Of a stretch of DNA of 64,000 nt, positions 1,740 to 27,043 are shown piece by piece. This stretch comes from Candidatus Aenigmatarchaeota archaeon (GTDB lineage: Archaea > Aenigmatarchaeota > Aenigmatarchaeia > JACPZZ01). Both the position numbers and the translations under genes were made by a program. The stretch is taken from assembly GCA_016202815.1 (NCBI GenBank), contig JACQNZ010000004.1, forward strand, positions 57,522 through 121,521, read 5' to 3'. The notes under the pieces are model-generated. The model made no database searches, was not told the origin of the DNA, and saw only the letters and a list, made by a program, of their open reading frames with translations. How positions within the stretch are numbered: position 1 is the stretch's first letter; each line of letters opens with the position of its first letter.

Positions 1740-2091
1740 CGAAAAAACCTCGTTTGTTTAGTCTATCGCTAATGCATCTGAGAAGAGAACCGATTGAAAT
1801 GTCTTCCATTCTCGGATTGTATGCGTTTGATTTCTTTCTAATTTTCAAAGGTAATTTGTTCTGATTATCCGTAACGATTTTGTGGCAATTCTGACAAAGA
1901 CAAACTGTTACTTTGCTGTTATTTCTGCCGAATACATGATGTTTCTGTAGAACTCTGGGATCATTTTCTCTGCAGATAAAGCATGCTCCGCCAGCGTCTA
2001 ATATTTCTCTGATGTTTTCTTCTGATCTTCTGTTTTCGATCAATAACTTCTGGTATCTCTTGAATTGTTCCTTGTCCATTCTAAACACCAT
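1732..2091 (-). CDS. HNH endonuclease
   Basis: CFIC...HH...CLCQNCH pattern typical of HNH nuclease zinc-binding core; overlaps polB start by 8 nt (operonic). Confidence 0.7.
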   Translation of the reverse strand: MVFRMDKEQFKRYQKLLIENRRSEENIREILDAGGACFICRENDPRVLQKHHVFGRNNSKVTVCLCQNCHKIVTDNQNKLPLKIRKKSNAYNPRMEDISIGSLLRCISDRLNKRGFFDE

Positions 2092-2572
2092 AAATATCGT
2101 AGAATTCCTCGTCTTCTCTGGCTTCTGCTATCTCGAAGAGTGTTTTGGGACTGGTTTCGAGTTTGTGTCGCTTGCCTTTAGCGTCCTTTATGACTCTTCG
2201 CTTGAATTTCTTCAGAATTGACTTGTCGCCGGTTTCTAGGTATCTTCTAACAGCACTATGATATTGGCCAATGAGGGATGCATCCTTTGAGTTTGTAACT
2301 ATTATCTCGATTGATAGCCCCCTTTCATTGATGACCATACCCCTCTGAATTCTATCGGTCTTTCTGGACACCCATCTTCGATTTTTAGCCTTCCTTATTG
2401 CTGATCCTAGATGTATCTTTGCGGTTTCTTTATCCAGTCCATACTCCTTTGAGGACTTTGTGAGGGATTTACCGGATCGCATCTCGGTTAGGACTTTCAG
2501 AGAAAGGATGCGGAGATATCTGTCCTTCGGTTTGAGCTTAGACCATTTTAGATTACTCGGTATTTTGACCAT
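2081..2572 (-). CDS. HTH-domain protein (casposon accessory)
   Basis: Basic 163 aa protein with helix-turn-helix-like segment; overlaps HNH gene; AT-rich codon usage like neighbours. Confidence 0.4.
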   Translation of the reverse strand: MVKIPSNLKWSKLKPKDRYLRILSLKVLTEMRSGKSLTKSSKEYGLDKETAKIHLGSAIRKAKNRRWVSRKTDRIQRGMVINERGLSIEIIVTNSKDASLIGQYHSAVRRYLETGDKSILKKFKRRVIKDAKGKRHKLETSPKTLFEIAEAREDEEFYDIYGV

Positions 2573-2647
2573 AGAATAGAAATGGGCAAAATATCATACT
2601 AGGATAGTTCGTAAATTAGATTAAATTTCTAAGAACTAACTTAAAAT

Positions 2648-3502
2648 ATGAACAACAGGAACATACTTCTCACTTTGTTATATCTATGCTCAATAAAACC
2701 ATTTTGTTCTAAGGAAATATCTGATATTCTGTTCGGGCATGAGCGTAATGACCGGAGTATCAAAAAATATCTTTCAAATATGAAAAAGAACGGTCTACTA
2801 AAACTCGTTGATTATCAAAATACAAAATACCCAAAATCTGAGTTCTTTGTCATTAACCTAGAAAGATTTCCTAATTGGGAAAATGACAGAGACAAAATCT
2901 TTGTTCCAGTAGGCGATCCAAACAAGGGTATAACAAGACTGTATATAGAAACGGAAAAAATTCCATTCAAGGAATTATTTGACTTACTTGGAATTTCAAC
3001 AGCCATAGGGTCTGGAAAACTGATAGCCACCATCAAAGGACGTATACCTGACGGTAGGGTAGGGTATTTAAACAGGGCAGTTCAAGAGAATGGTATGGAA
3101 AAACCCATAAACAATCTTAAAGTCGTATTCTACATTCCGCAGGGGTTAGAGGATTCGAAAGAAGTGATAGAAATACTGGAACGTCTTAAAACCCTGAAAC
3201 CTCCCAAATCAATCGGTTTCGAGTATTCTGTTAAAAAAATGAAGAAAGAAGATGAAGAAGAATTGAAGATTAAGGTGCTTATTCCGTTAGCTGTTAATTT
3301 CGGAATAAAGATAAAACAGACTCAAAACACAAAATCCCTATATCCACAGTTGATAACATACAATGGGAACGATTTGTGGACTTTTTACCCTCAACATAGG
3401 AAGGGAGAAGGCGAGATATCAATTATCAACTTCTTGAACGCCCTAGAATCTGGAAAATTCTTGGGGTTACATATAACACAGTATGAAAGGCGATTAGGAT
3501 GA
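2648..3502 (+). CDS. Hypothetical protein, possible N-terminal winged-helix domain
   Basis: 284 aa ORF immediately upstream of and overlapping cas1 start; no recognisable catalytic motif. Confidence 0.35.
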   Translation: MNNRNILLTLLYLCSIKPFCSKEISDILFGHERNDRSIKKYLSNMKKNGLLKLVDYQNTKYPKSEFFVINLERFPNWENDRDKIFVPVGDPNKGITRLYIETEKIPFKELFDLLGISTAIGSGKLIATIKGRIPDGRVGYLNRAVQENGMEKPINNLKVVFYIPQGLEDSKEVIEILERLKTLKPPKSIGFEYSVKKMKKEDEEELKIKVLIPLAVNFGIKIKQTQNTKSLYPQLITYNGNDLWTFYPQHRKGEGEISIINFLNALESGKFLGLHITQYERRLG

Positions 3503-4689
3503 AGCACCTTGTCCTAAGTGGACATGGAATAAACATCAACGTAGATAATAGCAGACTTCATGTCAAAGACGGTAGAAACGACCCAGACACAGAGCCCAAG
3601 AAATACACCTTCAAACCAAAAATGATGGACTTCGATAATGTCATTGTCTATGGTCATAGCGGAAACATAACACTCGAAGCTATGAGATGGCTCGTTAAGC
3701 AGAATGTGCAATTGACGCTGTTGGATTGGAATGGCAACTTGCTAACAAGCGTAATGCCACCGGAATCAAAACAAATCAACTACAGAATGGTTCAATACCA
3801 AGCGTATCAAACTGAAGAAAGAACAAGACTTGCCAAACTTCTCGTAGACGCTAAAATCAAGAGTAGCAAAGTTGTCCTAAGTTGGTTGAAGAGTAAGTAT
3901 CCTCAGATAAGCGATGATATCGAATACCGATACTCGAAACTACCAAGCGCAAATTCTGTAAAATACGTAATGGACGTTGAAGGCAAAGTTGCAATTGTCT
4001 ATTGGAGAGAACTTTCAAAGATATTCAACAAGACTTTTGAATTTGAAACCAGAGGTTATGGAAAGACACCTAGACCATTAGGAGCTGTAGACCCTATCAA
4101 TGTCCTTTTGAACTATGGTTATGCCGTTTTAGAAAGCGTATGTCTCAAAGCGATAAACACCGTGGGATTAGACCCTAAGATAGGATTCTTGCATGAGGCT
4201 CAAACAGGAAAGAACCCACTCGTATACGACTTACAAGAGCCTTTCAGATGGATTATTGATGTCGCTATCCTGAATGGTCTAGAGAAACGATTGTTCAAGA
4301 AGGACGATTTCATACGGACTGAGAACTATAACCTGAGGCTAAGGCCGAGTGGTGCAAAGAAGCTGGTTAGAGAGATAGAGTTGCAGATGAACAAGACTGT
4401 AGATTACAGAGGTTACAACTACAGTTGGGCATATATCATCGGTTTGAAGGCTTTGGAATTGGCGCAGTATTTAGCAGAGAAGAGGAAAACCATCGACTTC
4501 AGTAATCCTTCGCCTGAGTTGGAGATGAAGGATAACGCTGAGTTGAGACAAAAAATACTAGATTTGTCGTCTGCTAAGGCCGAGAAATTGGGGATCGGAC
4601 GAAATGAATTGCACTATCTGAGGAAGAAAGCGAAGTCAGAGAAAGCGTTTAAAATTTATGGAAAAGTAAAAGATAGACTGAGATGTTAA
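3499..4689 (+). CDS. cas1: Cas1-family integrase (casposase)
   Basis: Translation has the Cas1 hallmark block NYGYAVLES...GLDPKIGFLHEAQTGKNPLVYDLQEPFRWIID with conserved E/H/acidic catalytic positions, and a C-terminal HTH-like tail; no CRISPR repeats anywhere in window. Confidence 0.85.
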   Translation: MKHLVLSGHGININVDNSRLHVKDGRNDPDTEPKKYTFKPKMMDFDNVIVYGHSGNITLEAMRWLVKQNVQLTLLDWNGNLLTSVMPPESKQINYRMVQYQAYQTEERTRLAKLLVDAKIKSSKVVLSWLKSKYPQISDDIEYRYSKLPSANSVKYVMDVEGKVAIVYWRELSKIFNKTFEFETRGYGKTPRPLGAVDPINVLLNYGYAVLESVCLKAINTVGLDPKIGFLHEAQTGKNPLVYDLQEPFRWIIDVAILNGLEKRLFKKDDFIRTENYNLRLRPSGAKKLVREIELQMNKTVDYRGYNYSWAYIIGLKALELAQYLAEKRKTIDFSNPSPELEMKDNAELRQKILDLSSAKAEKLGIGRNELHYLRKKAKSEKAFKIYGKVKDRLRC

Positions 4690-4690
4690 A

Positions 4691-5314
4691 ATGGGTTATA
4701 AGACGAAAAAGATCATACTGAAAATGAATGGTAAGCACCTCAAAGGTATGTATGTAGAAAGGAGCAAAAAATGTATGGTCTTAGAAATTCCCGGAACTAG
4801 TATACATTCAACTTTCCCTTTGGTTAGTAAGGACTATCATTGGACACCTGTTGTAGAATTATCAGAAGAAGAAGCAGAAATTGTTGGAAAGTGTTTAAAA
4901 CAAGATAAAAATTTTAGATATACATTGAAAGATGGAAAATTGAGAATATACCCAAAAATTAGTACAGACAACTTCGATGTTTTTGGAGTCCATTTGGGCA
5001 CATTTGCAGGATTTATGAAAGAGTGCAGTACACTCAAAAAAGATTATGAGATTATAGACTTGGACGCTCTTGGATGTAAAATTCCTAATATCTGGGTTAC
5101 AATCCGTCCTCAAACAGAAAAAAAATTATACATGCCGGATATGCCATACATACTGAAAACTTTGCGAATAGACTATCCAGATGTTATAGTAATTCTGGAG
5201 TTTATCGACGCAACTAAACATGCTGAATGCGTCAAACAAAGTGATAACAGCTCTTTTGGAAAGACTAAACTCATTGAGAAAACAGAGAAGTACTATGGAG
5301 ATGTGTCTAGATGA
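4691..5314 (+). CDS. Hypothetical protein
   Basis: 207 aa ORF 2 nt after cas1 stop, same AT-rich composition. Confidence 0.4.
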   Translation: MGYKTKKIILKMNGKHLKGMYVERSKKCMVLEIPGTSIHSTFPLVSKDYHWTPVVELSEEEAEIVGKCLKQDKNFRYTLKDGKLRIYPKISTDNFDVFGVHLGTFAGFMKECSTLKKDYEIIDLDALGCKIPNIWVTIRPQTEKKLYMPDMPYILKTLRIDYPDVIVILEFIDATKHAECVKQSDNSSFGKTKLIEKTEKYYGDVSR

Positions 5315-5877
5315 AAGGAGAACGATTAACGATAAAATTAACAATTATTGGATTACTACTCGCTATGATCTTTGGTATATCAACTTTTTATGGAGATAAA
5401 AGACTTCCCGTTGGATTCGATCTATTTTTAGCGGTCTTGTCTAAATCTATGATACCTATTTCGTCATTGTTTTTCATTTACATTGTTGGGTTGGCTGGGG
5501 ATTATAAAAACTATTCCTATAAACGTGGTTATCGTTGGTATAACGCATTTTATGATCTGGGTGTAGTATTATCGACATTTACTGTCGCATTTTCAGCGTT
5601 AATAACATTTGTACTGTACGTTTCGGGAGAATTAAATAGTATACCCTTGTTCATAGCTGGGCTTTTTGCAACAGTATTAGTAGTGTTCTATCTGATCAGA
5701 AATGATTTAAGACGTTCTATTTTAGATTTGTCAAAAATTACACTAGATCTAATTAATCATATATCTTCGGTAGTCATGAAATCGAAGAAAGTGGCTGTTC
5801 AAAGGGTTAAGGCTGACGTGAAAAAACGTTCAAGATCTAGAAAAAAATATACGCCTAAGCGGCTGAAAAAACCTTAA
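5311..5877 (+). CDS. Hypothetical membrane protein
   Basis: Multiple hydrophobic helices, basic C-terminal tail; overlaps previous ORF by 4 nt. Confidence 0.4.
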   Translation: MKGERLTIKLTIIGLLLAMIFGISTFYGDKRLPVGFDLFLAVLSKSMIPISSLFFIYIVGLAGDYKNYSYKRGYRWYNAFYDLGVVLSTFTVAFSALITFVLYVSGELNSIPLFIAGLFATVLVVFYLIRNDLRRSILDLSKITLDLINHISSVVMKSKKVAVQRVKADVKKRSRSRKKYTPKRLKKP

Positions 5878-5884
5878 ATTTGAT

Positions 5885-6472
5885 TCATGAACTCCGTTTT
5901 TTATTATTCGAAGTCAGTATTTTGAGATCTGTTCTATATTCCAAAAAGTTTAGTATAGCCATAATTATCAGCACCCAAAACATTATAGAAACGGTTGAAA
6001 AAACCATCCAAATAAAAAACCAATAAAGACCTATGAACATAGATAAAATACCGTATCTAAAAAGCCTTTTTTGCATCAAATAATAGAAACGTTTTATACC
6101 GGAAAATACATGTAACTTGTAAGAAATTAGTAAAAGAGAAATTGAAAACACCCACGCGAAAGATATGTCCACAATTGTTTTTTGATAGGGTTGTGCGCTC
6201 AAAGTCAGAATTATTGATAGCGAAGTTAGCACAAGACCACCAAATGTAAGTGAGTCGCTCGATAATTTCTCAATTTCATCTATGATGCTGTGTTGTTTAT
6301 CTTCAATCTCATCTTTTCTAAAACCAGAGTCCAAGATTTTTTTACCTATTAACTTCGAATCTGCTAAGGTTTCTATCAAGATACAAACAGCAAGACCAAC
6401 AACCGTTATTATTCCCAGATTGCTACTAACAAGACCGAATAAATAGTCTATCACTTTCCACAACTCTGGCAT
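5885..6472 (-). CDS. Hypothetical membrane protein
   Basis: 195 aa ORF with several hydrophobic segments; last gene before the tRNA. Confidence 0.4.
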   Translation of the reverse strand: MPELWKVIDYLFGLVSSNLGIITVVGLAVCILIETLADSKLIGKKILDSGFRKDEIEDKQHSIIDEIEKLSSDSLTFGGLVLTSLSIILTLSAQPYQKTIVDISFAWVFSISLLLISYKLHVFSGIKRFYYLMQKRLFRYGILSMFIGLYWFFIWMVFSTVSIMFWVLIIMAILNFLEYRTDLKILTSNNKKRSS

Positions 6473-6638
6473 TTACCATAAGAATTTTTTATTGCTTGGC
6501 AATATGGACATGTTAAATATTTTTTGACTTCTATCTCGGGTTCTCCCATAAATAATCTTTTCGTATTTTGATTGATAAGTATTACATCATCCCACTTTTG
6601 TCCAATTTCTGGGAGATATCTATATCCCATAAATTTAT

Positions 6639-6766
6639 TGGGGAAACCGTGATTTGAACACGGGTCACCGACTATCTCTAAGCTTTTCTTTCCCTCAAGG
6701 CTTTCTTTCTTGAAAAGAAAGGCTTGCCCGAAGCCGGTATCTTAGACCAGGCTGGACCATTTCCCC
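6639..6766 (-). tRNA. tRNA-Pro (anticodon CGG) candidate with about 53 nt intron after position 37
   Basis: Hand fold: acceptor GGGGAAA/TTTCCCC, D-loop AGCCTGGTCTA consensus, anticodon stem CCGGC/GTCGG with loop TTCGGG, T-arm CCGTG-TTCAAAT-CACGG, discriminator A; D-stem weak (3 bp); intron contains a 12 bp hairpin; CCA not encoded. Confidence 0.55.
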
Positions 6767-6880
6767 CTTCTTACAGGCACACACCAATATTATGCGCCAA
6801 TCGTTATAACACTCTTTCTTTTATTATGGCCATCATCTTTTAAAATAGGCTTTTATTACGGCTCCGAATTAAGTTAAATA

Positions 6881-7759
6881 ATGCGAGGTACCAGAAACAT
6901 TGTTCCGGCGCTAACAGCCTTTTTATTAGTTTTACCCATGGCGATTTCGCCTGCTCTGGCAACGGGTTACGATGTGCAGAAGGTCGATATTTCATTCGAC
7001 GTAGGCTCTGATAATTCAGTTAAGCAAACGACCAGATTCTATTTTTCAAGTCCTGTGACGGACGGTTCGATAAATTACACGCTAAACGAGCCTGTCAAAA
7101 ACATAGTGGTTTATGGTGGCAATAAACAGTTGGATAGTAAATTGGACGGTGAGGGGGACAATTATAACTTGCAGATATTTTTGGACGGACCGGTTGAGAC
7201 ATTGTTAATAACCTATTCTGCCAGCGGTATAGTGTTCCACAGCGGTTCGGTGAACCATTTATTCACACAGTTTTCCTTTGAAAAGGAGATACCGATCGTG
7301 AACTCGCAACTAAAATTGCCGACAGGCTACGAAGTCTACCAGAATTCGTACAATCCCGCCGACGGCACGATAACATCGGACGGCAAAAGTATAATCTTGG
7401 CGTGGAATGAAAGCAACGTAAGCGGTTCTATACTATTCTCGGTAAAGTACGTCAATCCGGATAAAGGTTTTATTTTTTTGGTTGCTTTTGCCTTTTTGGC
7501 CACAGGAATCGTTGCGTTTCTCTATTTCCATTTCAGGAAGAAGACAGCAGAAGCGTTTTTAAAAGGTTTCCGGGAAGACGAAAAGAAAACCATCCTGTAC
7601 CTCAGGGGCAAGCAAACCGCCTTGCAAAGGGATTTGCAGGCCGAGTTCGGCTTTTCGAGAGCCAAGTCCACAAGAATAATCTACGAGTTGGAGAAGAAGG
7701 GCCTTGTCAGGAAACAAAGGCACGGGCGGACCAACAAGTTATTTTGGCTAAATAAATGA
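6881..7759 (+). CDS. Membrane-anchored protein with C-terminal winged-helix DNA-binding domain
   Basis: Signal peptide-like N-terminus, extracytoplasmic domain, one TM helix, then basic wHTH-like tail (ILYLRGKQTALQRDLQAEFGFSRAKSTRIIYELEKKGLV). Confidence 0.5.
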   Translation: MRGTRNIVPALTAFLLVLPMAISPALATGYDVQKVDISFDVGSDNSVKQTTRFYFSSPVTDGSINYTLNEPVKNIVVYGGNKQLDSKLDGEGDNYNLQIFLDGPVETLLITYSASGIVFHSGSVNHLFTQFSFEKEIPIVNSQLKLPTGYEVYQNSYNPADGTITSDGKSIILAWNESNVSGSILFSVKYVNPDKGFIFLVAFAFLATGIVAFLYFHFRKKTAEAFLKGFREDEKKTILYLRGKQTALQRDLQAEFGFSRAKSTRIIYELEKKGLVRKQRHGRTNKLFWLNK

Positions 7760-17811: not shown

Positions 17812-18750
17812 ATGCTGGCAGATGAGCGTTGGGAACAACTGAAAATATCCGTGGCCTATTACAGGACGGGTATTTTAGACAACCTGCGGACAGTGGCAGG
17901 CAACAAATACAGCAGGTTTGCAGACTATTCCAGAGGCATTCGTGTTGCGTACACAGACATGGAACACGTCGAATCTTACACGGCCAAGGTTCGTGAAGCG
18001 ACCGGTGGTGATGTACTACAATCTTACGCGGAACATGACAATATCACAGGTTTTCCTATGCTGACCGACCATGCCAGGATGGATGTCACGAAAGACGGGA
18101 ATGTCAGGATGGAGCCTAAGAGATTCGTCGGGTCTTGCGGTCCTATGATATTTACGCGCGAGGGCCTTGAAGACCGTTCAAAACCTTCCGCGTATGGGGA
18201 AGAATACGGGCCGTTGAGGTGTTTCCTGCATGAGCTCGGACACTTTGTCGCTTGGTTCTCGGCTAATATGCCAAAACATTTTGTTGGGTATGCAATAGAA
18301 CGCGGGGTCGCAAACAAGAATGGGATGAGCATTTACCGAAAACCGGACACGGACAAACAGGTCGATCCTGCATGTTTGCCTTTCATGAGACTTGGCGCTG
18401 CCGTATACATCCTGAACGAAACCGATGCTGAATATTTTGCCGTGAACACACTTTGCAGGATTGCGGGCGTGCCGCCCAAGGCCACTGAAACTTGGAAAAG
18501 CAGGGACATGGCGGTTGCTACAGGGCTTTTGCCAGCGGAGTTGAGGCGCATGTTTGAAACCGATCTTGACGCGATTAGCGCCATGCTTCGGGAAAATGGA
18601 TTTGGACTGGGCATAACGCCTGAGCTAAGGCATTTCGTTGCTGAAATGAAAAAAGTTCCGGTAATCAAAAGGCCGGTTACTTCTGGTGTTCCGGCTTTTG
18701 ACGACGCCTACGAAACCACTACGGCTGGTTTGTTGTTAGGGCTTTATTGA
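17812..18750 (+). CDS. Hypothetical protein with HExxH motif
   Basis: FLHELGHFVAWF suggests a zinc metallopeptidase-like site. Confidence 0.4.
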   Translation: MLADERWEQLKISVAYYRTGILDNLRTVAGNKYSRFADYSRGIRVAYTDMEHVESYTAKVREATGGDVLQSYAEHDNITGFPMLTDHARMDVTKDGNVRMEPKRFVGSCGPMIFTREGLEDRSKPSAYGEEYGPLRCFLHELGHFVAWFSANMPKHFVGYAIERGVANKNGMSIYRKPDTDKQVDPACLPFMRLGAAVYILNETDAEYFAVNTLCRIAGVPPKATETWKSRDMAVATGLLPAELRRMFETDLDAISAMLRENGFGLGITPELRHFVAEMKKVPVIKRPVTSGVPAFDDAYETTTAGLLLGLY

Positions 18751-18791
18751 AAGACTGTTTGAATCACAGGAATCGGGTATAAATCCGGAGT

Positions 18792-19487
18792 TTGGAAATA
18801 ATAAAGAAGGACGATCAGATGAGTGAAGAACAAATACGTTTATCGGCATCGTCTCTTGGGTTGATGCTCGACTGTGAACGCTGCTTCTGGCTGAAAATTG
18901 TTAAAAAAGTTGATAGACCTAACGGACCTTTTCCTAGTTTGCCAGGCGGCATCGACGCTGTTATGAAGAAACACTTTGATGCCTATCGCAGCAAAGGGCT
19001 ACCGCCTGAACTGGTTGGGAAAGTTGACGGCAAGCTGTTTGATGACATTGAACTGATTGACAAGTGGAGGAATTGGAGGACAGGACTATCGGTTGTAGAC
19101 AATAATATAAAATTAGTTGCGGCGTTTGATGACCTGCTTGTTAACGATGGGAAGTTTATTCCATTTGACGTCAAAACAAAGGGCTGGAAACCGAAGGTAG
19201 ACGCCAAGGATCATTATCAGCACCAAATGGATATCTATGCATACGTGTTGTTGAGAAACGGATACGAGATCTCAGATCACGCTTACCTAGCTTTCTATTA
19301 CCCAGATATTGCCAATGGTGACGGTTCGATACAGTTCATGACGGATGTTGTCAAGGTTGATATTAAACTAGACCATGCGGTCCAGATGCTGAAAGATGCT
19401 GCTAAGGTTATCGAAGGCAGAGAGCCGAAAGCGGCTGATAAATGCGAGTTTTGCGGGTGGAATACAGCTCTAAATAAATGTCAATAA
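18792..19487 (+). CDS. Cas4-like PD-(D/E)xK nuclease with Fe-S cluster cysteines
   Basis: N-terminal CERCFW, nuclease motifs AAFDDLLV / IPFDVKTKG / QHQMDIYAY, C-terminal CEFCGW...C; arrangement matches the Cas4/RecB-nuclease fold. Confidence 0.6.
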   Translation: MEIIKKDDQMSEEQIRLSASSLGLMLDCERCFWLKIVKKVDRPNGPFPSLPGGIDAVMKKHFDAYRSKGLPPELVGKVDGKLFDDIELIDKWRNWRTGLSVVDNNIKLVAAFDDLLVNDGKFIPFDVKTKGWKPKVDAKDHYQHQMDIYAYVLLRNGYEISDHAYLAFYYPDIANGDGSIQFMTDVVKVDIKLDHAVQMLKDAAKVIEGREPKAADKCEFCGWNTALNKCQ

Positions 19488-19864
19488 ACAGTGTTATTAT
19501 CATGGACGATCAGACTACGATTAATGAATTAAAGGGGCTCGTAAGAAAATTTTGTGAAGAGAGGGATTGGGATAAATATCACAATCCTAAAGACCTTGCT
19601 ATTGGAATCATAACAGAATCTTCTGAACTCTTAGAACATTTTAGATTCAAAACAAATGAAGAAACAGAAGAAATGTTTGAGAACGTGAAAAATAGAAAGG
19701 AGATATCAGAGGAGCTATCTGATATATTATATTTTGTTCTTAGGCTAGCGCAAAAATACAGCATAGATTTGTCAGAAGAGTTAAAAGCTAAGATAGAAAA
19801 AAACGGTAAAAAATACCCTATCGAAAAATCGAAAGGATTGAATAAAAAGTATACGGAGCTATAA
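19478..19864 (+). CDS. MazG-like nucleotide pyrophosphohydrolase
   Basis: All-alpha NTP-PPase pattern IITESSELLEHF...EELSDILYFVLRLAQKYSIDL; overlaps upstream gene by 10 nt. Confidence 0.65.
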   Translation: MSINSVIIMDDQTTINELKGLVRKFCEERDWDKYHNPKDLAIGIITESSELLEHFRFKTNEETEEMFENVKNRKEISEELSDILYFVLRLAQKYSIDLSEELKAKIEKNGKKYPIEKSKGLNKKYTEL

Positions 19865-19867
19865 AAT

Positions 19868-21736
19868 TTGAGATTATACGAAGGCACTGTACAAGAGTTC
19901 AAGAAAGATGTGATTGAAAATCGAATAGCTGACATTCTTTCAGAAAACTATTTTATTCAAATTAAAAAAAGGGTAACCCCGTCGGAACAGCGGTCTTGGC
20001 AGGTCTCTCTTAGGGTACTAAAAGATACGCTTGACATATCTGGTTTATTACAAAATAAAATTGTTATCGAAAATAGGCTTCCGTACACAGAGAGGAGGAT
20101 AGATGTGCTTCTATTTGGAAAAGGATATGACGGAACTGATAGGATTGTGCTAATAGAACTGAAGCAATGGTCAAATGATAATGTTTTTGATGATAACATA
20201 GATGGAAATGTTGAAGTCTATTTCGGTAAGAACAAAATACATAGAGAACACCCTTCACTACAGGTACAAGGATATGTCATTGATTTGCAGGATTTCATGA
20301 AATTTTTTAGTGAGATTCCTAGGGTTAATTTAGAAGGGTGCTCTTATTGTCACAATTACAGCAAAAAAGATAACGCTATATTGTTCGCTGAAAGATTTTC
20401 TGAACCCCTGGAAAAATACCCGCTTTTTTCAAAGGAAGATGCTTATGAACTTGGAAACTATCTAAAAGAAAGACTTTCGATTGATCCGGGTTTCGAAGTG
20501 TTTAATAGATTTGATAATAGTGAGATATTTCCGTCTAAGAAACTGTTGGATCACATCGGGGATATGATCAATAAACAGCAAATGTTCAATTTGATCGACG
20601 ATCAAATAGCAGCCTATAATGTGATTATGGATAGAGCAAAAAAACAGGTAAAGCGAAAAGAGAAGTCTGTTATAATTGTAAAGGGGGGTCCAGGCACTGG
20701 AAAATCGGTGATAGCATTGGAAGTTATGGGCGAACTGCTTAGAAAAGGAAAAAAAGTTTTTCATGCCACGGGTTCATCGGCATTTACAAAGACCTTACGA
20801 GATTTGATAGGAAAAGAGAGAAAAAGTGCAGAGAACTTTTTTAAATTCTTTTATGCTTTTACCAAAGCACCAGCAGACGATATAGATGTGCTCATATGTG
20901 ATGAAGCACACAGAATCAGGAGTAATAGCAATGACTGGGGGGTGCCCAGCATGTACAAATCAAAAAATCCTCAAATTGATGATCTTATCAGACCTGCAAA
21001 ACTTTCCGTGTTTTTTATAGATGAATATCAGGTGGTCAGACCCAATGAGGTGGGCAGTATAGCATTGATTAAAGAGTCTGCCAAAAAACTTGGTGTTAAG
21101 GATTCGGAAATATTTGAATTCGAATTAAAAACACAGTTCAGATGTTCCGGCTCTGATACTTATCTGCAATGGTTGGAGAATACGCTCGGTATAAGGGAAT
21201 CTGAAAATGTAATTTTGAATACAGATCTGATGGAATTTAAAATATTCAATTCACCACAAGAATTTTATGACGCCATAAAGCAGAAAAATAAAGAAAAACC
21301 CAACTGCGCGAGAATAGTAGCTGGTTTTTGCTGGCCTTGGAGCAAACCGAATAAAGACGGCACGTTGGTGAATGATGTGGTTATCGATGGTTTTAGTATG
21401 CCGTGGGAAAAGAAAGATGAATTTTGGAAATGGGCCAGAGACTCGTCAGGAATGGAACAGGTGGGTACAGTTTATACATCGCAGGGGTTTGAGTTTGATT
21501 ACATAGGTGTAATATTCGGAAAAGATCTCGTTTATGATTCCACCAGCCAAAAATGGGAATGCAAACCAGAAAATTCGTACGATAATACTGCGAAAAGAGG
21601 AAATTCAAAGTTTACTGAACACCTTAAGAATGTTTACCGTGTTTTGATGTCAAGAGCACACAAAGGTTGTTATGTTTATTTCATGGACAAATCTACGGAA
21701 GAATTTTTCAAATCACGAATAGAAGGATCTAAATAG
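19868..21736 (+). CDS. PD-(D/E)xK nuclease fused to SF1-type ATPase/helicase (DUF2075-like)
   Basis: N-terminal RIDVLLF...IVLIELKQW nuclease-like motif; Walker A KGGPGTGKSV; Walker B/DEAH-like ICDEAHRI; C-terminal TVYTSQGFEFDYIGVIFG helicase motif. Confidence 0.65.
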   Translation: MRLYEGTVQEFKKDVIENRIADILSENYFIQIKKRVTPSEQRSWQVSLRVLKDTLDISGLLQNKIVIENRLPYTERRIDVLLFGKGYDGTDRIVLIELKQWSNDNVFDDNIDGNVEVYFGKNKIHREHPSLQVQGYVIDLQDFMKFFSEIPRVNLEGCSYCHNYSKKDNAILFAERFSEPLEKYPLFSKEDAYELGNYLKERLSIDPGFEVFNRFDNSEIFPSKKLLDHIGDMINKQQMFNLIDDQIAAYNVIMDRAKKQVKRKEKSVIIVKGGPGTGKSVIALEVMGELLRKGKKVFHATGSSAFTKTLRDLIGKERKSAENFFKFFYAFTKAPADDIDVLICDEAHRIRSNSNDWGVPSMYKSKNPQIDDLIRPAKLSVFFIDEYQVVRPNEVGSIALIKESAKKLGVKDSEIFEFELKTQFRCSGSDTYLQWLENTLGIRESENVILNTDLMEFKIFNSPQEFYDAIKQKNKEKPNCARIVAGFCWPWSKPNKDGTLVNDVVIDGFSMPWEKKDEFWKWARDSSGMEQVGTVYTSQGFEFDYIGVIFGKDLVYDSTSQKWECKPENSYDNTAKRGNSKFTEHLKNVYRVLMSRAHKGCYVYFMDKSTEEFFKSRIEGSK

Positions 21737-21791: not shown

Positions 21792-22163
21792 TCATCTTTT
21801 TTTATATCCAAAATATTTTTCATAGGTTCTATGGGAAATTGCATCAAGGACTATTGCCAGTATTTCGATCTCGTTTGTGTGTAAAGTGTATATCAACCGC
21901 CAGCCATCAAAAAGATCAACTTTCCAAAGATTGTTCACATCCGCCATTGTGATGTATCTTTTTGGTATGTATTTTTTGGGTATCTGAATCCCTGAAATGG
22001 GATCAATTTTGAGTTGGTCAATGGCCACCTTGATAGAGCTGAACAATTTTTGTTTTTCAGAATCGACTATGCCCCGTTTTGTTTCATTTTTGACCTCTTC
22101 GTGCAATTCATGTAATTCAGCAGCAACTTCTTTTCTGTTTCTCACCCTGATTCGTTTAATCAC
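21792..22163 (-). CDS. RelE/ParE-family toxin (putative)
   Basis: C-terminal LWKVDLFDGWRLIYTLHTNEIEILAIVLDAISHRTYEKY fits the RelE/ParE pattern. Confidence 0.5.
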   Translation of the reverse strand: MIKRIRVRNRKEVAAELHELHEEVKNETKRGIVDSEKQKLFSSIKVAIDQLKIDPISGIQIPKKYIPKRYITMADVNNLWKVDLFDGWRLIYTLHTNEIEILAIVLDAISHRTYEKYFGYKKR

Positions 22164-22435
22164 GTTTCAGTGCCTTCTCTGATTATTTTGTCAAGTTTAG
22201 GACTAGGGTTGTATGTCCAAATAACACCCTTATGACTATCAATGATCATACCATGATCCTCAAAGTAACTGAGAATTACATTCAATGTCTGATGCATGAT
22301 TTGAACCGGTAACTTTCGTTTGATTTCTTCTCTGCTTATAGCAACGTCAGAGTCCTTTAGAACTTTCTCTACCATACGGACAGTTCTTAGAGTCGGTGAG
22401 TGCAAAATCTCTTGAGTTTGAAGCTTGTTCTTCAT
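22160..22435 (-). CDS. Putative antitoxin
   Basis: 91 aa ORF immediately upstream of and overlapping the toxin by 4 nt; classic TA arrangement. Confidence 0.4.
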   Translation of the reverse strand: MKNKLQTQEILHSPTLRTVRMVEKVLKDSDVAISREEIKRKLPVQIMHQTLNVILSYFEDHGMIIDSHKGVIWTYNPSPKLDKIIREGTET

Positions 22436-22582
22436 AGTTATATCATTATACAGATATCTATATATAGTTATACATAGTAGTAATAATCGTTAAATGTGAC
22501 CTAAGTAGACGTTTTGGGTTTTATTTTCTGTGATTAAAGTCGCCTTGTTGTGATTTTAGTCGTTGTTTTCGGTTACTTTAAG

Positions 22583-22607
22583 CACAAGGCTCCCCCCCCC
22601 CGCGGCG
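22583..22607. repeat. Direct repeat copy 1: ACAAGGCT + C(10) + GCG
   Basis: Same 8 bp core plus poly-C and GCG recurs at 26676-26693. Confidence 0.6.
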
Positions 22608-22980
22608 TTGTAGAGGAAGTCTACTAAATTGACGTACATTAGATACGGAATGGGGACTTTAGGTACAAAACGCCGAAAATAGTTGTCTATTTATTTATCA
22701 AGCAATGAATGGTGATTATTGTCGTCTTAATCGACGGTTTGGCTCTGATCTTCCTGAAAAATAGGGGGATCTTAAATGAAATCGAGAACTTATTCGGGCG
22801 GATCAGAGCTTTGGCAGTTTTAAAAAACGTTGATTGACGTATTTTATTATTTAAATGTCTAAGGTCTAATTATAAAGCGAGATGATCATGGTAAACTGCC
22901 ATGCTATCACCTACAAATAGACTTTATAGGCTGTAATCAGCTTCGCTGGTCGCCTATAGGGGATGAGGCGCGTCGCGCAT

Positions 22981-23631
22981 TTATTTTTTATATTTTTTAA
23001 ATAATTCAATGAAACATTTCGGATCAGGACTTATGTTAATGGTTCTGAAATAATTAAAATTTCTAAGGGTTTCTGCATTTATTTTTCTATGGGATGCTGC
23101 AATGTAATCTGCGAATTTTAGAAGTTTTGTATGCTTTGCATTGCTAACGGAAAAATCAAAATTTCTATTGAAAGAATTACTTATTCTCCTACAACTGTCT
23201 AGCGCTTTGTTTATGTTCATCCAGCTTTCTTCACAAAATACTATATCGTATTTAAGTTCTTGTTTAGATTCTGGAAATGTCATTTGACGCAGTAAAGTGA
23301 AATAATAAATTGCTATTAATCTTTCTTTGAAAAAAGCCTCCTCACCATAATTTCTTTTATAATTAACCCAATCTTGTTGACTTATGGATATTGATCGCAT
23401 TCTAATCTTCCTTTCATCAAAAAATCTTATTATTCTTTCAAGATCTGTTGCGTCTAATTTTACTCCTTTCCATTTAGATCTTTCAAATTCTTTCAAATGT
23501 TCAGAAAATTCCTTTTCTATTTTAGTTATCGAATAAGTTGGTGAGGAAATAGAACCTATAAAGATTTTGTCATACGGTACTCCACTGATATCTATTGCGA
23601 TCTTAATTGGTACTTGTCCCATACAAATCAC
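22981..23631 (-). CDS. Hypothetical protein
   Basis: 216 aa, AT-rich, no motif recognised. Confidence 0.35.
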   Translation of the reverse strand: MICMGQVPIKIAIDISGVPYDKIFIGSISSPTYSITKIEKEFSEHLKEFERSKWKGVKLDATDLERIIRFFDERKIRMRSISISQQDWVNYKRNYGEEAFFKERLIAIYYFTLLRQMTFPESKQELKYDIVFCEESWMNINKALDSCRRISNSFNRNFDFSVSNAKHTKLLKFADYIAASHRKINAETLRNFNYFRTINISPDPKCFIELFKKYKK

Positions 23632-23714
23632 CTGTTTAGAGGGTTATATTAAAGCGGTGGTAGTTGTCTGAATTATCAACTATCTTTTAAATCAGTCAAC
23701 TTCGTTTATTTTTA

Positions 23715-24689
23715 CTAATCACTAATACTCATATTCAGATTTATACTATAATCTTGAGATTCTTTGATCAGTACGCAGATGTTGTGTGATAATATCTTGC
23801 ACAGTAGTTCATTCTCTTGTGCAGTTCTATTCTTTGATTTCAACGAATCTCCAAACTTAGCTTTAATCATAGAGAACGTGCTCTCGATGTTGCTTCTTCT
23901 ATGATAGTGAGCCATAAATTCCGGTTGCCTGAATTTGAAATAGTGATACATTTTATGCCAAATTGGCGAGCCTTTGCTCTTTCCTGTGGTGTTTACTTTA
24001 AACGGAATGAACGCTTCCACGCCCAACTTATCAACGATTTTGTAATTTTCTCTTGATAGATAGGCTTTGTCCGCCGAAACCTCTTCTACGTTGAAATCTT
24101 GTACGGTTTCTTCTACCAATGGACTGAATTGTTTAATATCCGCTCCGTTTTCATCTGTGATTCTAACAGCGGTTATCAAGTTTGTTTTTGTTCCACAGAT
24201 CGCATGACACTTCAGCCATTTATGTTTCCTTGATAATCCATGCTTTACGATGCAGTATTCCGTAAATCTCGTTGTTCTGAAGCCTGTTGAATCTACGGCG
24301 AACTGAGTTTCTAAATCCTTCAAAGGTAAAGCTGTGAGAGTTATCAATCTGTGGAGTATTGGTGTTATTGTTGGATTGTTCAAAACCTTAGAGGTAGCTG
24401 TGAAATGCGGTGATTTCTCGATTATTTCATCTTCTTCGGCATTATCGAACAGACCGTTAGCCCTTCGGCACGACATCATAGAGTAGACTTTCTTGATAGA
24501 ACAAAACAACAAATCTCTAAGAGGTAAGGTTGGTCTGCCGAATTTGTATTCCGGTTCTTCGACACCTTCGAGTAAGTCTTTCAGAAGAACGTCAAACTGG
24601 TTTAACTCCATACACTGTGCTCTATTGTAAGCTGGCCAGTTCTGGGTGCTTTGTTGTTTCCAGAGGTCTTGTAACGGATTGTTTTTCAT
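23715..24689 (-). CDS. IS4/IS5-family DDE transposase
   Basis: DDE_Tnp_1-like C-terminal block YHRRSNIESTFSMIKAKFGDSL...KNRTAQENELLCKILSHNICVL. Confidence 0.75.
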   Translation of the reverse strand: MKNNPLQDLWKQQSTQNWPAYNRAQCMELNQFDVLLKDLLEGVEEPEYKFGRPTLPLRDLLFCSIKKVYSMMSCRRANGLFDNAEEDEIIEKSPHFTATSKVLNNPTITPILHRLITLTALPLKDLETQFAVDSTGFRTTRFTEYCIVKHGLSRKHKWLKCHAICGTKTNLITAVRITDENGADIKQFSPLVEETVQDFNVEEVSADKAYLSRENYKIVDKLGVEAFIPFKVNTTGKSKGSPIWHKMYHYFKFRQPEFMAHYHRRSNIESTFSMIKAKFGDSLKSKNRTAQENELLCKILSHNICVLIKESQDYSINLNMSISD

Positions 24690-24746
24690 AGTGTTATTAG
24701 GTACCTATAAATATTTAAATAGATAGGTACCGAAAGATTATATGTT

Positions 24747-24914
24747 ATGAAGCTTCAAAAACAGCTTTCTCGCAAAGCCGGAAACGTTGTATATCCCAAG
24801 TGGGTCATTGTAATATCCCCTAAAGATATAGATAAACTGGGCTGGAAAGAAGGTGTTGAACTGGAATCAGAAACAACACAAAACAAGTTATTGTTGAAGC
24901 CTAAGAAAAATTAA
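24747..24914 (+). CDS. AbrB/SpoVT-like small DNA-binding protein (putative)
   Basis: 55 aa ORF below the track cutoff: MKLQKQLSRKAGNVVYPKWVIVISPKDIDKLGWKEGVELESE... resembles swapped-hairpin AbrB/MazE-type domain. Confidence 0.3.
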   Translation: MKLQKQLSRKAGNVVYPKWVIVISPKDIDKLGWKEGVELESETTQNKLLLKPKKN

Positions 24915-24932
24915 ATTTTCGTGCCCTTAAAA

Positions 24933-26120
24933 TTATTTACTGTTTGTTAATCTGTTTAACTCTTTTATCATTTCGGATATTGGAATTTTTTTATCGGCTC
25001 GCACTAGTTTTTCTATAAGTTCTATTTGAGTTTGGGTAAATCTGGGGCTAAGGTTTTTACGTAGATGATTTTCGAGTAACCATAAATCTTCAAACGATCT
25101 CTCATTACTCCAAGGTGCATTTCTTATGTATTTTTGTATCATCTTCTCTGTATAGGCTATTTCTATTGGGATTATGTAAATCTCGGGACACTTGCTCCTA
25201 AGGAAAGATTCTATGGTGTTTGGTGTAACCGAATAAACTTCACTCAGAATTTCGTCTTCTATTATTTTTTTGTATCTTTTCCTTGATGGTTCATTTTCGT
25301 GTCCTTCTTTAAACAGGCTGTAAACCGTTGTACCTACATGACTTACAACTTCTCCTGTTTGATGACCGCTTTCTAACCATCCTTGAAAATCTTTGTTCTT
25401 CAGGTCTATGAAATCCACGAGTTTTATGCTATTAGAACCTCCTCCTTGTCTCCAGTTTCTTATCCATCCATCACAAACCAAGCTCCATATAGGTAAGAGA
25501 CGGGAATTAATTATTTTTCTATCACCGGAAAATATCATGGGCACAGCTACACAGAATACGCGTTTGCCCGTCATCATCTTGAAGAACACTATTTTCTTAC
25601 ATATGGAATCGAACGCTGGATATTGTCCATAATGAACTCCGTAGAATAGTGCCAAATGATCAAATTTCTCGGATTTAGCTGCCGGTATTATTTGATTCTG
25701 TATGACGACATCTTCTAACTTGTAAGACACCTCGAGTATTATGTCTTTTTTAGAAAACCCTCTTTTCAGGATTTCGGCCAGTTCTATTTTTTCAACTACA
25801 TCGTACTCCGTTTCGTCTTTGAAGTATGGCAATATTATGAACTCTCCGTTCATTTTTATCTGCTCTTCAACGACACTCTTCAATATTTTCTTCGAGAATG
25901 TAAGATACGAACAATCGGGATAATTAATTACTCCCATATTCTCATTTATCTGATCATTGACTTTTTCGAACGGCTGATCTTGATTAGTTTTGTTGAAGAA
26001 AACTTGTCTTTCCACGAATTCTATTTGCATGTCGTCCAGATCGGATGTCTTGAACATCCTAAACGGAGCGCGTAAAACTTTTCCACTTTTAGTTTGTAAA
26101 TTATCTTCCATCTTTAACAT
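24933..26120 (-). CDS. Hypothetical protein, 395 aa, no recognisable family
   Basis: Long ORF last in a three-gene minus-strand operon. Confidence 0.4.
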   Translation of the reverse strand: MLKMEDNLQTKSGKVLRAPFRMFKTSDLDDMQIEFVERQVFFNKTNQDQPFEKVNDQINENMGVINYPDCSYLTFSKKILKSVVEEQIKMNGEFIILPYFKDETEYDVVEKIELAEILKRGFSKKDIILEVSYKLEDVVIQNQIIPAAKSEKFDHLALFYGVHYGQYPAFDSICKKIVFFKMMTGKRVFCVAVPMIFSGDRKIINSRLLPIWSLVCDGWIRNWRQGGGSNSIKLVDFIDLKNKDFQGWLESGHQTGEVVSHVGTTVYSLFKEGHENEPSRKRYKKIIEDEILSEVYSVTPNTIESFLRSKCPEIYIIPIEIAYTEKMIQKYIRNAPWSNERSFEDLWLLENHLRKNLSPRFTQTQIELIEKLVRADKKIPISEMIKELNRLTNSK

Positions 26121-26406
26121 CTTCCTCTCTCACTACGAAGGTGAAAAGTTTAAGGTAGTCTGACTGTTTCATCCTTTTCAACGATTCGGCGTATCTCTGA
26201 ACTGTAACACGGTGTATACCAAGCTTGTTCGCAAGAATTGTGTTATTATAACCTTTCGCTGAGAGTAAGAATAAATTTTTGAGCAATGCCATATTCAATG
26301 AATGTTCCCTGCAAATTCTATTGATTTCTTCCTCTTCTTTTAGTGAAGATAACAGTTTGCTCATACTACTAAGTGTAGCATCCTGATATTTAAATATATC
26401 GGTCAT
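26101..26406 (-). CDS. HTH transcriptional regulator
   Basis: ILANKLGIHRVTVQRYAESLKR helix-turn-helix segment; overlaps downstream gene by 20 nt. Confidence 0.45.
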   Translation of the reverse strand: MTDIFKYQDATLSSMSKLLSSLKEEEEINRICREHSLNMALLKNLFLLSAKGYNNTILANKLGIHRVTVQRYAESLKRMKQSDYLKLFTFVVREEDVKDGR

Positions 26407-26585
26407 GTTTCCTCGTCTTCTGGGTACAGGATATACACAATTTTTCCGATGTCTTCTTGCGGAAAATTAACTTTACCACTGGACTCGTTATTTTTCGAAA
26501 TTGTAACCGTTCTTATTTGGCCGAATTTTATCTGATCGAAAGAAAACGAACCCTTGAACTTTCCATTGATCTTAATTGATTTCAT
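26403..26585 (-). CDS. Small hypothetical protein
   Basis: 60 aa ORF overlapping the HTH gene start by 4 nt. Confidence 0.25.
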   Translation of the reverse strand: MKSIKINGKFKGSFSFDQIKFGQIRTVTISKNNESSGKVNFPQEDIGKIVYILYPEDEET

Positions 26586-26675
26586 ATAGCTAAAATTAGC
26601 TATTAATAGCTATAAAGCTTTTGTATTGACTTTAGCTACAAACAAGCCACTTTAGCTACAAAATCGACTTCTGCT

Positions 26676-26693
26676 ACAAGGCTCCCCCCCGCG
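26676..26693. repeat. Direct repeat copy 2: ACAAGGCT + C(7) + GCG
   Basis: Matches copy 1 in the same orientation, about 4.1 kb away. Confidence 0.6.
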
Positions 26694-27043
26694 ATAACTT
26701 TATATACAAGGTATGATATAGTAGGATATAGTGGTATAATGTCGTATACGCTAATGCAATTGCCTGACGGGGGCGGGACGCAATGCGTTGCGCGCAGGCC
26801 TGCCCCCGTTTTCATGCTCACTGCCAGCACAAGTGAGAAGCTGGTTTCTCGGCAAGTAGAATTTCTTTCTACGCCAGCCATGCCGTTTGGCCAGTTTGTA
26901 GTTGGGAACGGACGGCGTCCGTTCCAGTTTCAGGGAGGTGGACTTTATGTAAAATTGGCCGGAGAGTATAAACACGGAAATCCGTGGGAAAGCAGACAGG
27001 GTATGCTTTTATGCCGCGGGTTCCCGGAAACATGAAACACAGA

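Follow-up and report, generated by a model that had tools for sequence, protein, structure and literature searches.

A predicted MazG-like pyrophosphohydrolase and DUF2075 nuclease-helicase form a mobile gene pair, a likely defence module, beside a transposon-linked Cas4-like nuclease gene in an Aenigmarchaeota contig

The DNA analyzed here (the window) is a 64,000-nt stretch of a 205.9-kb contig from a Candidatus Aenigmarchaeota metagenome-assembled genome, a contig also annotated by NCBI. At positions 19502-21736 it carries two adjacent genes, B and C, whose predicted products are a MazG-like nucleoside triphosphate (NTP) pyrophosphohydrolase and a nuclease-helicase of the DUF2075 family. 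We conclude, with a probability of roughly 60%, that B and C are a horizontally mobile two-gene operon serving as an anti-virus or anti-mobile-element module of the kind represented by the Nhi-like systems, and that the Cas4-like nuclease gene preceding them (A) is not a component. An earlier note, made from the sequence alone, had described three co-directional genes at 18792-21736 and read them as one cassette. Three open reading frames (ORFs) of the same direction are indeed present:

Gene A, 18819-19487, forward strand: 222 aa, ATG start at 18819; NCBI MBI4177147.1, "PD-(D/E)XK nuclease"; a neighbour, not the core of the pair.
Gene B, 19502-19864, forward strand: 120 aa, ATG start at 19502; NCBI MBI4177148.1, "nucleotide pyrophosphohydrolase"; first gene of the pair.
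Gene C, 19868-21736, forward strand: 622 aa, TTG start; NCBI MBI4177149.1, "DUF2075 protein"; second gene of the pair.

The starts of A and B were set by the NCBI annotation of the contig and by the points at which homologue alignments begin; for B, the ATG at 19502 yields a protein identical to the 120-aa NCBI entry. With these starts the stop codon of B is separated from the start of C by 3 nt, and A lies 14 nt ahead of B. The junctions had been described as overlapping or 3 nt long: the 3-nt gap stands, and the A-B overlap does not.

A scan of one genome per species gave 80 loci with full-length homologues of C (37–63% identical). These and the other homologous loci or contigs fetched for comparison with the window are numbered L001–L117. 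A tblastn search with the window proteins placed a B homologue beside the helicase gene in 56 of the 80 loci; more than 20 phyla are represented. About 44 of these B homologues are located ≤50 nt upstream on the same strand, five are immediately downstream, two are divergent, and four are separated from the helicase gene by one gene. In many phyla the paired genes are co-oriented with gaps of -1 to 50 nt. Paired loci occur in DPANN archaea, Methanosarcinales, Thermoplasmata, Thaumarchaeota, Bacillota, Pseudomonadota, Acidobacteriota, Omnitrophota, candidate phyla radiation (CPR) bacteria and Chloroflexota-related groups, among others. Independent clustering of neighbouring ORFs recovered the same MazG cluster in 45 loci, within 150 nt of the helicase gene in 42 of them.

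The association also holds when approached from B. Of 60 listed plasmid records with a B-like gene, many of them related Bacillus cereus-group megaplasmids and hence not independent, 49 have a DUF2075 gene within 600 nt and four more within 2.6 kb. Both full-length helicase homologues on viral contigs have MazG upstream. The divergence of B between loci, taken pairwise, correlates with that of C (Spearman's rho 0.25; the value was reached in 0 of 999 permutations). In the closest relative of the helicase (L117, 76% identical) MazG precedes the helicase gene by 2 nt and A is absent; DNA homology between L117 and the window is confined to 19542-21726, that is, to B-C. In records annotated by the Prokaryotic Genome Annotation Pipeline the pair can be recognized by the labels "nucleotide pyrophosphohydrolase" and "DUF2075 domain-containing protein". 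These comparisons of sequence indicate that the conserved unit is B-C (19502-21736) rather than A-B-C, which also corrects the unit to be cloned.

Gene B is predicted to encode an all-alpha MazG-like NTP pyrophosphohydrolase of the DCTPP1/RS21-C6 type with intact catalytic motifs, in agreement with the MazG-like assignment made at first. It matches the MazG-like profile PF12643 (3e-15; 56.6 bits, gathering cut-off 27). In a PDB search it aligns over its full length with dCTP pyrophosphatase 1 (RS21-C6) structures 6sqw and 2a3q (4e-20), and it matches an archaeal pyrophosphatase structure at 3e-18. Among 48 B homologues the ExxE (E47, E50) and ExxD (E79, D82) metal-binding motifs, W31 and H35 are conserved (numbering of the 128-aa ORF, not of the 120-aa protein). 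The likeness to DCTPP1 (PDB 6sqw, 2a3q, 2oie, 7mu5) thus extends from the full-length alignment to the ExxE/ExxD ligands and the Trp and His of the base region. DCTPP1 hydrolyses dCTP, with a preference for 5-modified dCTPs. It is, however, a eukaryotic housekeeping enzyme without a helicase partner, whereas B is helicase-paired and its substrate is only predicted.

Gene C matches PF09848 (DUF2075, the Schlafen group 3 or SLFN-g3 helicase) at 9e-88 over residues 266-607, and its N-terminus weakly matches NERD (2e-3, residues 63-147). D79, E97-x-K99 (within an ELKQW motif), the Walker A sequence GGPGTGKS and DEAH are conserved in 74 homologues. An AlphaFold model (predicted local distance difference test score 81) has Dda, RecD2, Dna2, Upf1 and Ighmbp2 as its top Foldseek matches; a PDB sequence search with the helicase profile returned only a marginal match to SLFN5 (E 0.0085). 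From motifs and model, C is predicted to be an N-terminal PD-(D/E)XK nuclease fused to a superfamily 1B (SF1B)-type DUF2075 helicase, and the nuclease-SF1 helicase fusion of DUF2075 type suggested earlier is upheld by the family match, the retained catalytic residues and the fold. The helicase family comprises more than 7,000 protein clusters at E ≤ 1e-10, with members 60–76% identical across DPANN archaea, Omnitrophota, CPR bacteria and Acidobacteriota.

The pair varies in its attachments. In a large helicase sub-lineage (~790–800 aa) a C-terminal Peptidase_S24 domain (a LexA/UmuD-like autopeptidase) is present, usually with MazG still upstream. Such fusions were found in L022 (10001-12400), in L005, L007, L011, L044, L047, L048 and L053, and in many other proteins of the family; the S24 domain suggests control of that sub-lineage by RecA or DNA damage. 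The Enterobacteriaceae version (L053) had no DNA match in complete E. coli genomes. Encoded upstream of the helicase in five loci are related proteins with an HECGH (HExxH-like) motif, in some cases with N-terminal tetratricopeptide repeats (L033 2164-3030, L041 9119-9973, L047 7832-9052, L053 8400-9998, L060 8032-9753). ORF clustering placed no MazG beside the helicase in these five loci, and in L053 tblastn finds a MazG-like sequence 663 nt downstream; the HECGH protein may be an alternative helicase partner. In the Bacillus cereus-group megaplasmids the N-terminus of the helicase is different and weakly GIY-YIG-like, and an HNH endonuclease gene is just upstream. The conserved block on the B. 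cereus and B. thuringiensis megaplasmids L114 and L116, including that of strain HD-1, consists of the HNH endonuclease, a hypothetical protein, the MazG-like pyrophosphohydrolase and the GIY-YIG-like DUF2075 helicase (560 aa). Genes for a zeta toxin and for another (d)NTP pyrophosphohydrolase adjoin it, and the strains are cultured and tractable.

The surroundings of the pair are those of defence islands, as had been proposed, with restriction, HNH, toxin-antitoxin-like and transposase genes. Among its 144 nearest neighbours the commonest were HNH_2 (9) and RadC (5) proteins, type IV, I and II restriction enzymes, PbeA, DpdF, BrxP and HmaA, and modification-dependent neighbours (PUA/SRA-HNH, DUF3427, DUF3578) recurred. 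Flanking genes vary from locus to locus, include no replication or structural genes, and show no conserved core-genome synteny. The module was present on 62 plasmid records versus 4 of 50,697 phage records, and 2–3 full-length copies were found among 2.9 million viral contigs. A RadC-like JAB protein (PF04002 plus UPF0758_N) is encoded directly beside the pair in five loci (L008 8947-9639, L010 1039-1749, L012 11861-12526, L013 11858-12532, L057 11958-12650).

The position of A is different. The earlier note had treated a failure of the three genes to co-occur in other genomes as grounds for giving up the cassette; B and C do occur together in 56 of the 80 loci, but A-family homologues (43% identical) are near the helicase gene in only three, all from Woesearchaeota. 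L013 has the same A-B-C order and is the sole locus of the 80 in which an A homologue directly adjoins; in L001 and L004 the homologue, on the same strand, is located upstream at distances of 1.3 and 2.3 kb. Three more loci of the 80 contain only distant (~26% identical) PD-(D/E)XK proteins. On the side of A, seven protein look-ups led to seven distinct contexts (L084, L097/L098, L099, L100, L101, L102-107 and L108-110), a small sample, as a metagenome scan with A gave a single locus. None of the seven has a MazG or helicase gene; the genes nearby are for restriction-modification, an integrase, GmrSD, HNH and Dcm.

The closest relatives of A point to a transposon. In three of the four (77–82% identical) there is an overlap of 8–20 nt between the A homologue and the 3′ end of an IS5-type (insertion sequence 5) DDE transposase gene, and in the fourth two small ORFs lie between the transposase gene and the A homologue; none of them adjoins MazG or a helicase. 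A trace of such an arrangement is present in the window:

18761-18818, forward strand: 3′-terminal relic of an IS5-type transposase gene, immediately ahead of A, at the left edge of the island.

Window positions 18761-19458 align at 77% identity to L099 5943-6646, which comprises a transposase 3′ end and an A homologue. A 25-nt inverted match joins 18761-18785 to the 3′ end of the window's own transposase gene (23738-23762). Homology to the transposase-A units stops at ~19460, just before B, and this break and a step in guanine-plus-cytosine (GC) content coincide with the A/B junction. Because of the L099 alignment, the inverted match and the end of homology at ~19460, we propose that A would have arrived as a transposase-then-nuclease unit, the transposase of which was truncated at the left edge of the island, and that A now abuts the pair. 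On sequence grounds A thus appears to be a juxtaposed, transposon-linked neighbour and not a component of the B-C pair. It is highly improbable that the three genes make up one immunity cassette, with the Cas4-like nuclease acting together with the pyrophosphatase and the helicase-nuclease, and the single cassette of the earlier note is not sustained. The common strand and the gaps of 14 and 3 nt are what such a cassette would show; L013 with its A-B-C order, and L001 and L004 with A nearby, speak for it as well, the more so as the A family is small (70 clusters) and three of 80 exceeds chance, and other nucleases (HNH_2, a DUF3578 protein) are often encoded just upstream of MazG. These points are outweighed by the seven independent A-family contexts without either partner, by the closest helicase relative with MazG and no A, by the IS5-coupled relatives of A and the transposase relic, and by a GC content of 43.8% in A against 32% in B and 37% in C.

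We compared the B-C pair with known systems. Table S2 of Millman et al. (2022; bioRxiv 10.1101/2022.05.11.491447) lists a candidate named "Pyrophosphatase" with two constructs, SG192 and SG193. SG192, from Bacillus firmus LK28, consists of a 98-aa pyrophosphatase and a 643-aa DUF2075 protein. The SG192 pyrophosphatase shares 48% identity with B (2e-26). Compared with the published helicases over their first ~400 residues, C runs colinear with the DUF2075 protein of SG192, starting at residue 1 (31% identical over residues 1-402, 3e-59), and is 26% identical to the SG193 helicase (4e-26). Both the candidate and B-C consist of a small pyrophosphatase of MazG type and a DUF2075 protein of ~620–640 aa with an N-terminal ELKQW-type PD-(D/E)XK motif, in adjacent and co-oriented genes (here a stop at 19864 and a start at 19868), as in about 44 of the 80 loci. 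The window copy differs in being archaeal (Aenigmarchaeota) and in having a helicase only 26–31% identical. Judging from that table, "Pyrophosphatase" is a system predicted from defence-island statistics, given in the supplementary table only, and not an established one. The combination had been said to match no named system; no named validated system does correspond to it, but B-C is already listed under that name. PADLOC v2 contains no full-length model for the pair and none for the MazG partner.

Two single-gene systems combine a nuclease with a DUF2075 helicase. Nhi (SERP2475 of Staphylococcus epidermidis; Bari et al.) is antiviral and joins a nuclease to a DUF2075/SF1B helicase; Nhi-like (SG141 of Bacillus cereus FSL H8-0482; Millman et al., 2022; PADLOC PDC-S41) is antiviral by experiment. 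C shares with both an N-terminal nuclease with catalytic residues and a DUF2075 SF1B helicase with Walker A/B motifs, and with Nhi the same fold neighbours (Dda, Upf1, Dna2; Bari et al.). Its match to the PADLOC Nhi model (PDLC02372) is limited to the helicase core (residues 257-476 versus 190-376 of the 470 model positions, E 2e-12), that to PDC-S41 to its last ~80 residues (523-604, E 7e-21), and its identity to SG141 is 21% (E 7e-6). The second helicase of L035 matches PDC-S41 over its full length (1e-288), and PDC-S41 therefore represents the SG141 Nhi-like lineage. The earlier note had recommended searches with defence-system models and profiles; those of Pfam, NCBIfam and PADLOC gave domain calls for A, B and C and no full-length match of C to a defence model. 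By sequence C is only a distant relative of Nhi and Nhi-like and not a member of either; unlike them, it usually has a MazG partner, and they act alone. An SG141-type paralogue (Nhi-like/PDC-S41) is found in tandem with, and after, a C-type helicase in L007 (3954-5930), L035 (11934-13913) and L037 (11942-13945), which marks the two lineages as distinct. In L007 and L037 a MazG-like gene is upstream of the first helicase, and in L035 no MazG match was found. A Hymenobacter plasmid (L111 2904-4760) carries a tandem DUF2075 copy of unassigned type upstream of the helicase, with no MazG match found. The main texts of the papers searched contained nothing relevant that joins DUF2075, Nhi or Schlafen with MazG, nor on PDC-S41; the recent "bacterial Schlafen" papers, to go by their abstracts, appear to be about the Schlafen RNase domain.

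By analogy with Nhi as described by Bari et al., C would use ATP to translocate along and unwind the DNA of an invader or its replication intermediates and would cut with its N-terminal nuclease. B, by analogy with DCTPP1, would hydrolyse nucleotides of the dCTP type, perhaps the 5-modified dCTPs with which some viruses evade restriction, and would thereby starve or "unmask" viral DNA synthesis. The frequent modification-dependent nuclease neighbours suggest a role against viruses with modified cytosine, or simpler nucleotide depletion. Only tentatively do we extend this to a widespread immune system of two enzymes, one editing the nucleotide pool and the other attacking DNA: B would destroy the modified dCTP (or dCTP) required for restriction-resistant genomes, C would degrade the resulting DNA or stalled intermediates, and the upstream nucleases (Cas4-like, HNH, modification-dependent) and the S24 domain would be optional sensor or effector add-ons. 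On this extension the negative outcome with SG192 would reflect the wrong phage panel or host. Should B-C prove to be an immune system, it would unite two antiviral strategies already known, manipulation of the nucleotide pool and attack by a nuclease-helicase, and would parallel the eukaryotic relatives SLFN11/SLFN5 (helicase domain) and DCTPP1. The validated DUF2075 nuclease-helicases (Nhi, Nhi-like) act alone; the lineage described here is distinct, widespread in bacteria and archaea, and usually coupled to a DCTPP1-like enzyme.

A defence role of B-C is likely, and several observations weigh against it. The one experimental test of such a pair that we located gave no defence: SG192 is marked "x" under "observed defense" in Table S2, and SG193 (B. 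thuringiensis Lr3/2) is marked "Cloning failed" (Millman et al., 2022). Conservation of the helicase at 60–76% identity across distant phyla is unusually high for an immune gene. MazG was not detectable in 24 of the 80 loci, and the B-C partnership is therefore not obligatory; the correlation of B and C divergences is modest, and the kinship of the plasmid records lessens their weight. What B acts on, and whether it is coupled to C physically or functionally, are matters of pure inference.

The main rival is that B-C is a DNA-maintenance accessory, in which the pyrophosphatase cleans the pool of non-canonical dNTPs and the nuclease-helicase processes stalled forks or damaged DNA, much as eukaryotic DCTPP1 with Dna2 or SLFN11. 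The SG192 result and the strong conservation of the helicase agree with this, as do the many helicases with a LexA/UmuD-type S24 domain and its suggested link to RecA or DNA damage, the close relationship of B to house-cleaning DCTPP1, and the resemblance of the fold of C to Dna2. We nevertheless consider it unlikely, because the distribution is patchy and clearly horizontal, with an AT-rich island here and plasmids elsewhere, because the neighbours are mostly restriction, HNH, type IV, toxin-antitoxin and transposase genes without core-genome synteny, and because the related single-gene Nhi and Nhi-like are antiviral by experiment. Alternatively, the pair could be cargo working for a mobile element and not for the host, for instance by providing an integrated plasmid or virus with a replication or counter-defence module. 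Phages often carry MazG genes, the pair is found on some plasmids and on a few viral contigs and phage records, and the island in the window is a mosaic of transposase-linked pieces; the rarity in viruses (4 of 50,697 phage records; 2–3 full-length copies in 2.9 million viral contigs), flanks that differ at each locus and are devoid of replication or structural genes, and a conserved nuclease active site that fits attack better than replication make such cargo very unlikely. The anti-virus or anti-mobile-element module remains our preferred reading of B-C.

Gene A itself was analyzed as a nuclease. It matches Pfam PDDEXK_1 (1e-7) and the PADLOC Cas4 models (1e-6 to 9e-9), and a PDB sequence search with A gave no match. 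C19, C22, C209, C212, D104, D117-x-K119 and Q136xxxY140 are invariant in 38 members of the family. A is predicted to be a genuine, stand-alone RecB-type PD-(D/E)XK nuclease with four conserved cysteines that are non-canonical for Cas4. With CRISPR-associated Cas4 it shares the RecB-type D...DxK and QxxxY motifs, conserved cysteines and the PADLOC matches. Unlike Cas4, it scores 24.6 bits against TIGR00372 (cas4), far below the cut-off of 65, it has no adjoining cas genes and its closest relatives are tied to an IS5-type transposase. The canonical Cas4 cysteines that bind the Fe-S cluster are arranged 1+3 (C...CxxCx5C), those of A 2+2 (C19-x2-C22...C209-x2-C212), and a fifth, C-terminal cysteine is not conserved. 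Of the Cas4-like Fe-S nuclease with a four-Cys cluster described at first, the RecB-type domain and the four cysteines hold; the Fe-S cluster stays putative, the cysteine order being CxxC...CxxC.

Units of a transposase and a Cas4-like nuclease were observed on DPANN-type archaeal contigs (L099 5016-6663, L100 4383-6048, L084 116-1043, L097 4059-6669), with 71–84% DNA identity kept amid differing flanks. The unit is reminiscent of two-protein transposases such as TnsA/TnsB, or of an IS with a fixed passenger gene, and may be of separate interest for transposon biology. A link of A to CRISPR was rejected: the only Cas1 of the window is a solo gene, 14 kb away in another block and with no array found beside it. 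This gene (3499-4689, 396 aa, Pfam 8e-63) is part of a second AT-rich block (1-7000); the ORFs on its flanks gave no Cas2 or Cas4 matches, and no CRISPR array was found within 1-2700. It could be a casposon-like or orphan Cas1.

The AT-rich block that surrounds the pair extends from ~18761 to ~26700, with 36.5% GC versus 49% in the flanks. The departure from the flanking composition had been noted correctly, yet the block is not uniform (A 43.8%, B 32.0%, C 36.8%). GC falls from 0.50 at ~18761-18818, the left edge of the island. In an independent Logan assembly the start of A is connected to the host aminotransferase gene, and the host/island junction is therefore not an assembly artefact. These data support a horizontally acquired, mosaic island. 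No tRNA gene and no Rfam family, as candidate integration sites, was found within the window. Scans for sigma-70 promoters and terminators gave counts equal to the shuffled expectation, a sigma-70 model having been applied to an archaeal host. The last gene of host composition ahead of the island (17812-18750, 50% GC) encodes a 312-aa protein with an HELGH motif; this protein matched nothing in Pfam, NCBIfam or PADLOC, and none of the fetched loci has a homologue.

Downstream of C the island contains the following features:

21792-22435, reverse strand: genes D (123 aa) and E (91 aa), both small, with a 4-nt overlap; a possible toxin-antitoxin pair of the RelE/YoeB superfamily.
22583-26694, no strand assigned: segment of ~4.1 kb between direct repeats of ~20 nt (ACAAGGCTCCCCCCC..GCG); context, not part of the module.
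23715-24689, reverse strand: IS5-family transposase gene (DDE_Tnp_1 1e-24, NF033579 9e-36).

The IS transposase reported nearby in the earlier note is thus an IS5-family member. The copies of the repeat, at 22583-22605 and 26674-26694, are possibly the ends of a separate inserted element; the DNA between them encodes this transposase, an AbrB/MazE-like 55-aa ORF and four ORFs with no assigned function. The transposase gene with its flanking DNA is 80% identical to L099 1664-2730, and non-coding DNA at 22526-22670 is 85–89% identical to non-coding DNA of L099 and L100. Synteny of a 216-aa ORF with a DUF3800-transposase-MazE-like block of L099 was rejected, as the ORF shows no similarity to the DUF3800 protein of that block (E 0.32); what is shared is the transposase, the 55-aa ORF and flanking DNA only.

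The RelE/ParE toxin-antitoxin pair that had been placed next to the three genes corresponds to D and E. The two small overlapping genes are there, but the match of D to YoeB_toxin is weak and below threshold (E 0.022; 15.2 bits, cut-off 27), and the gene upstream of the toxin candidate matched no antitoxin profile. A toxin-antitoxin pair is plausible, since the layout of two small overlapping genes fits one. Homologues of D and E are located beside the MazG-helicase pair in L012 (8873-9627) and 3.8 kb from it in L117 (8256-8926), and L004 (4453-4776) has only D beside or near the pair; L100 (92-367), which lacks the MazG-helicase pair, carries an E homologue at 92% identity. D/E is a recurrent companion of this kind of island.

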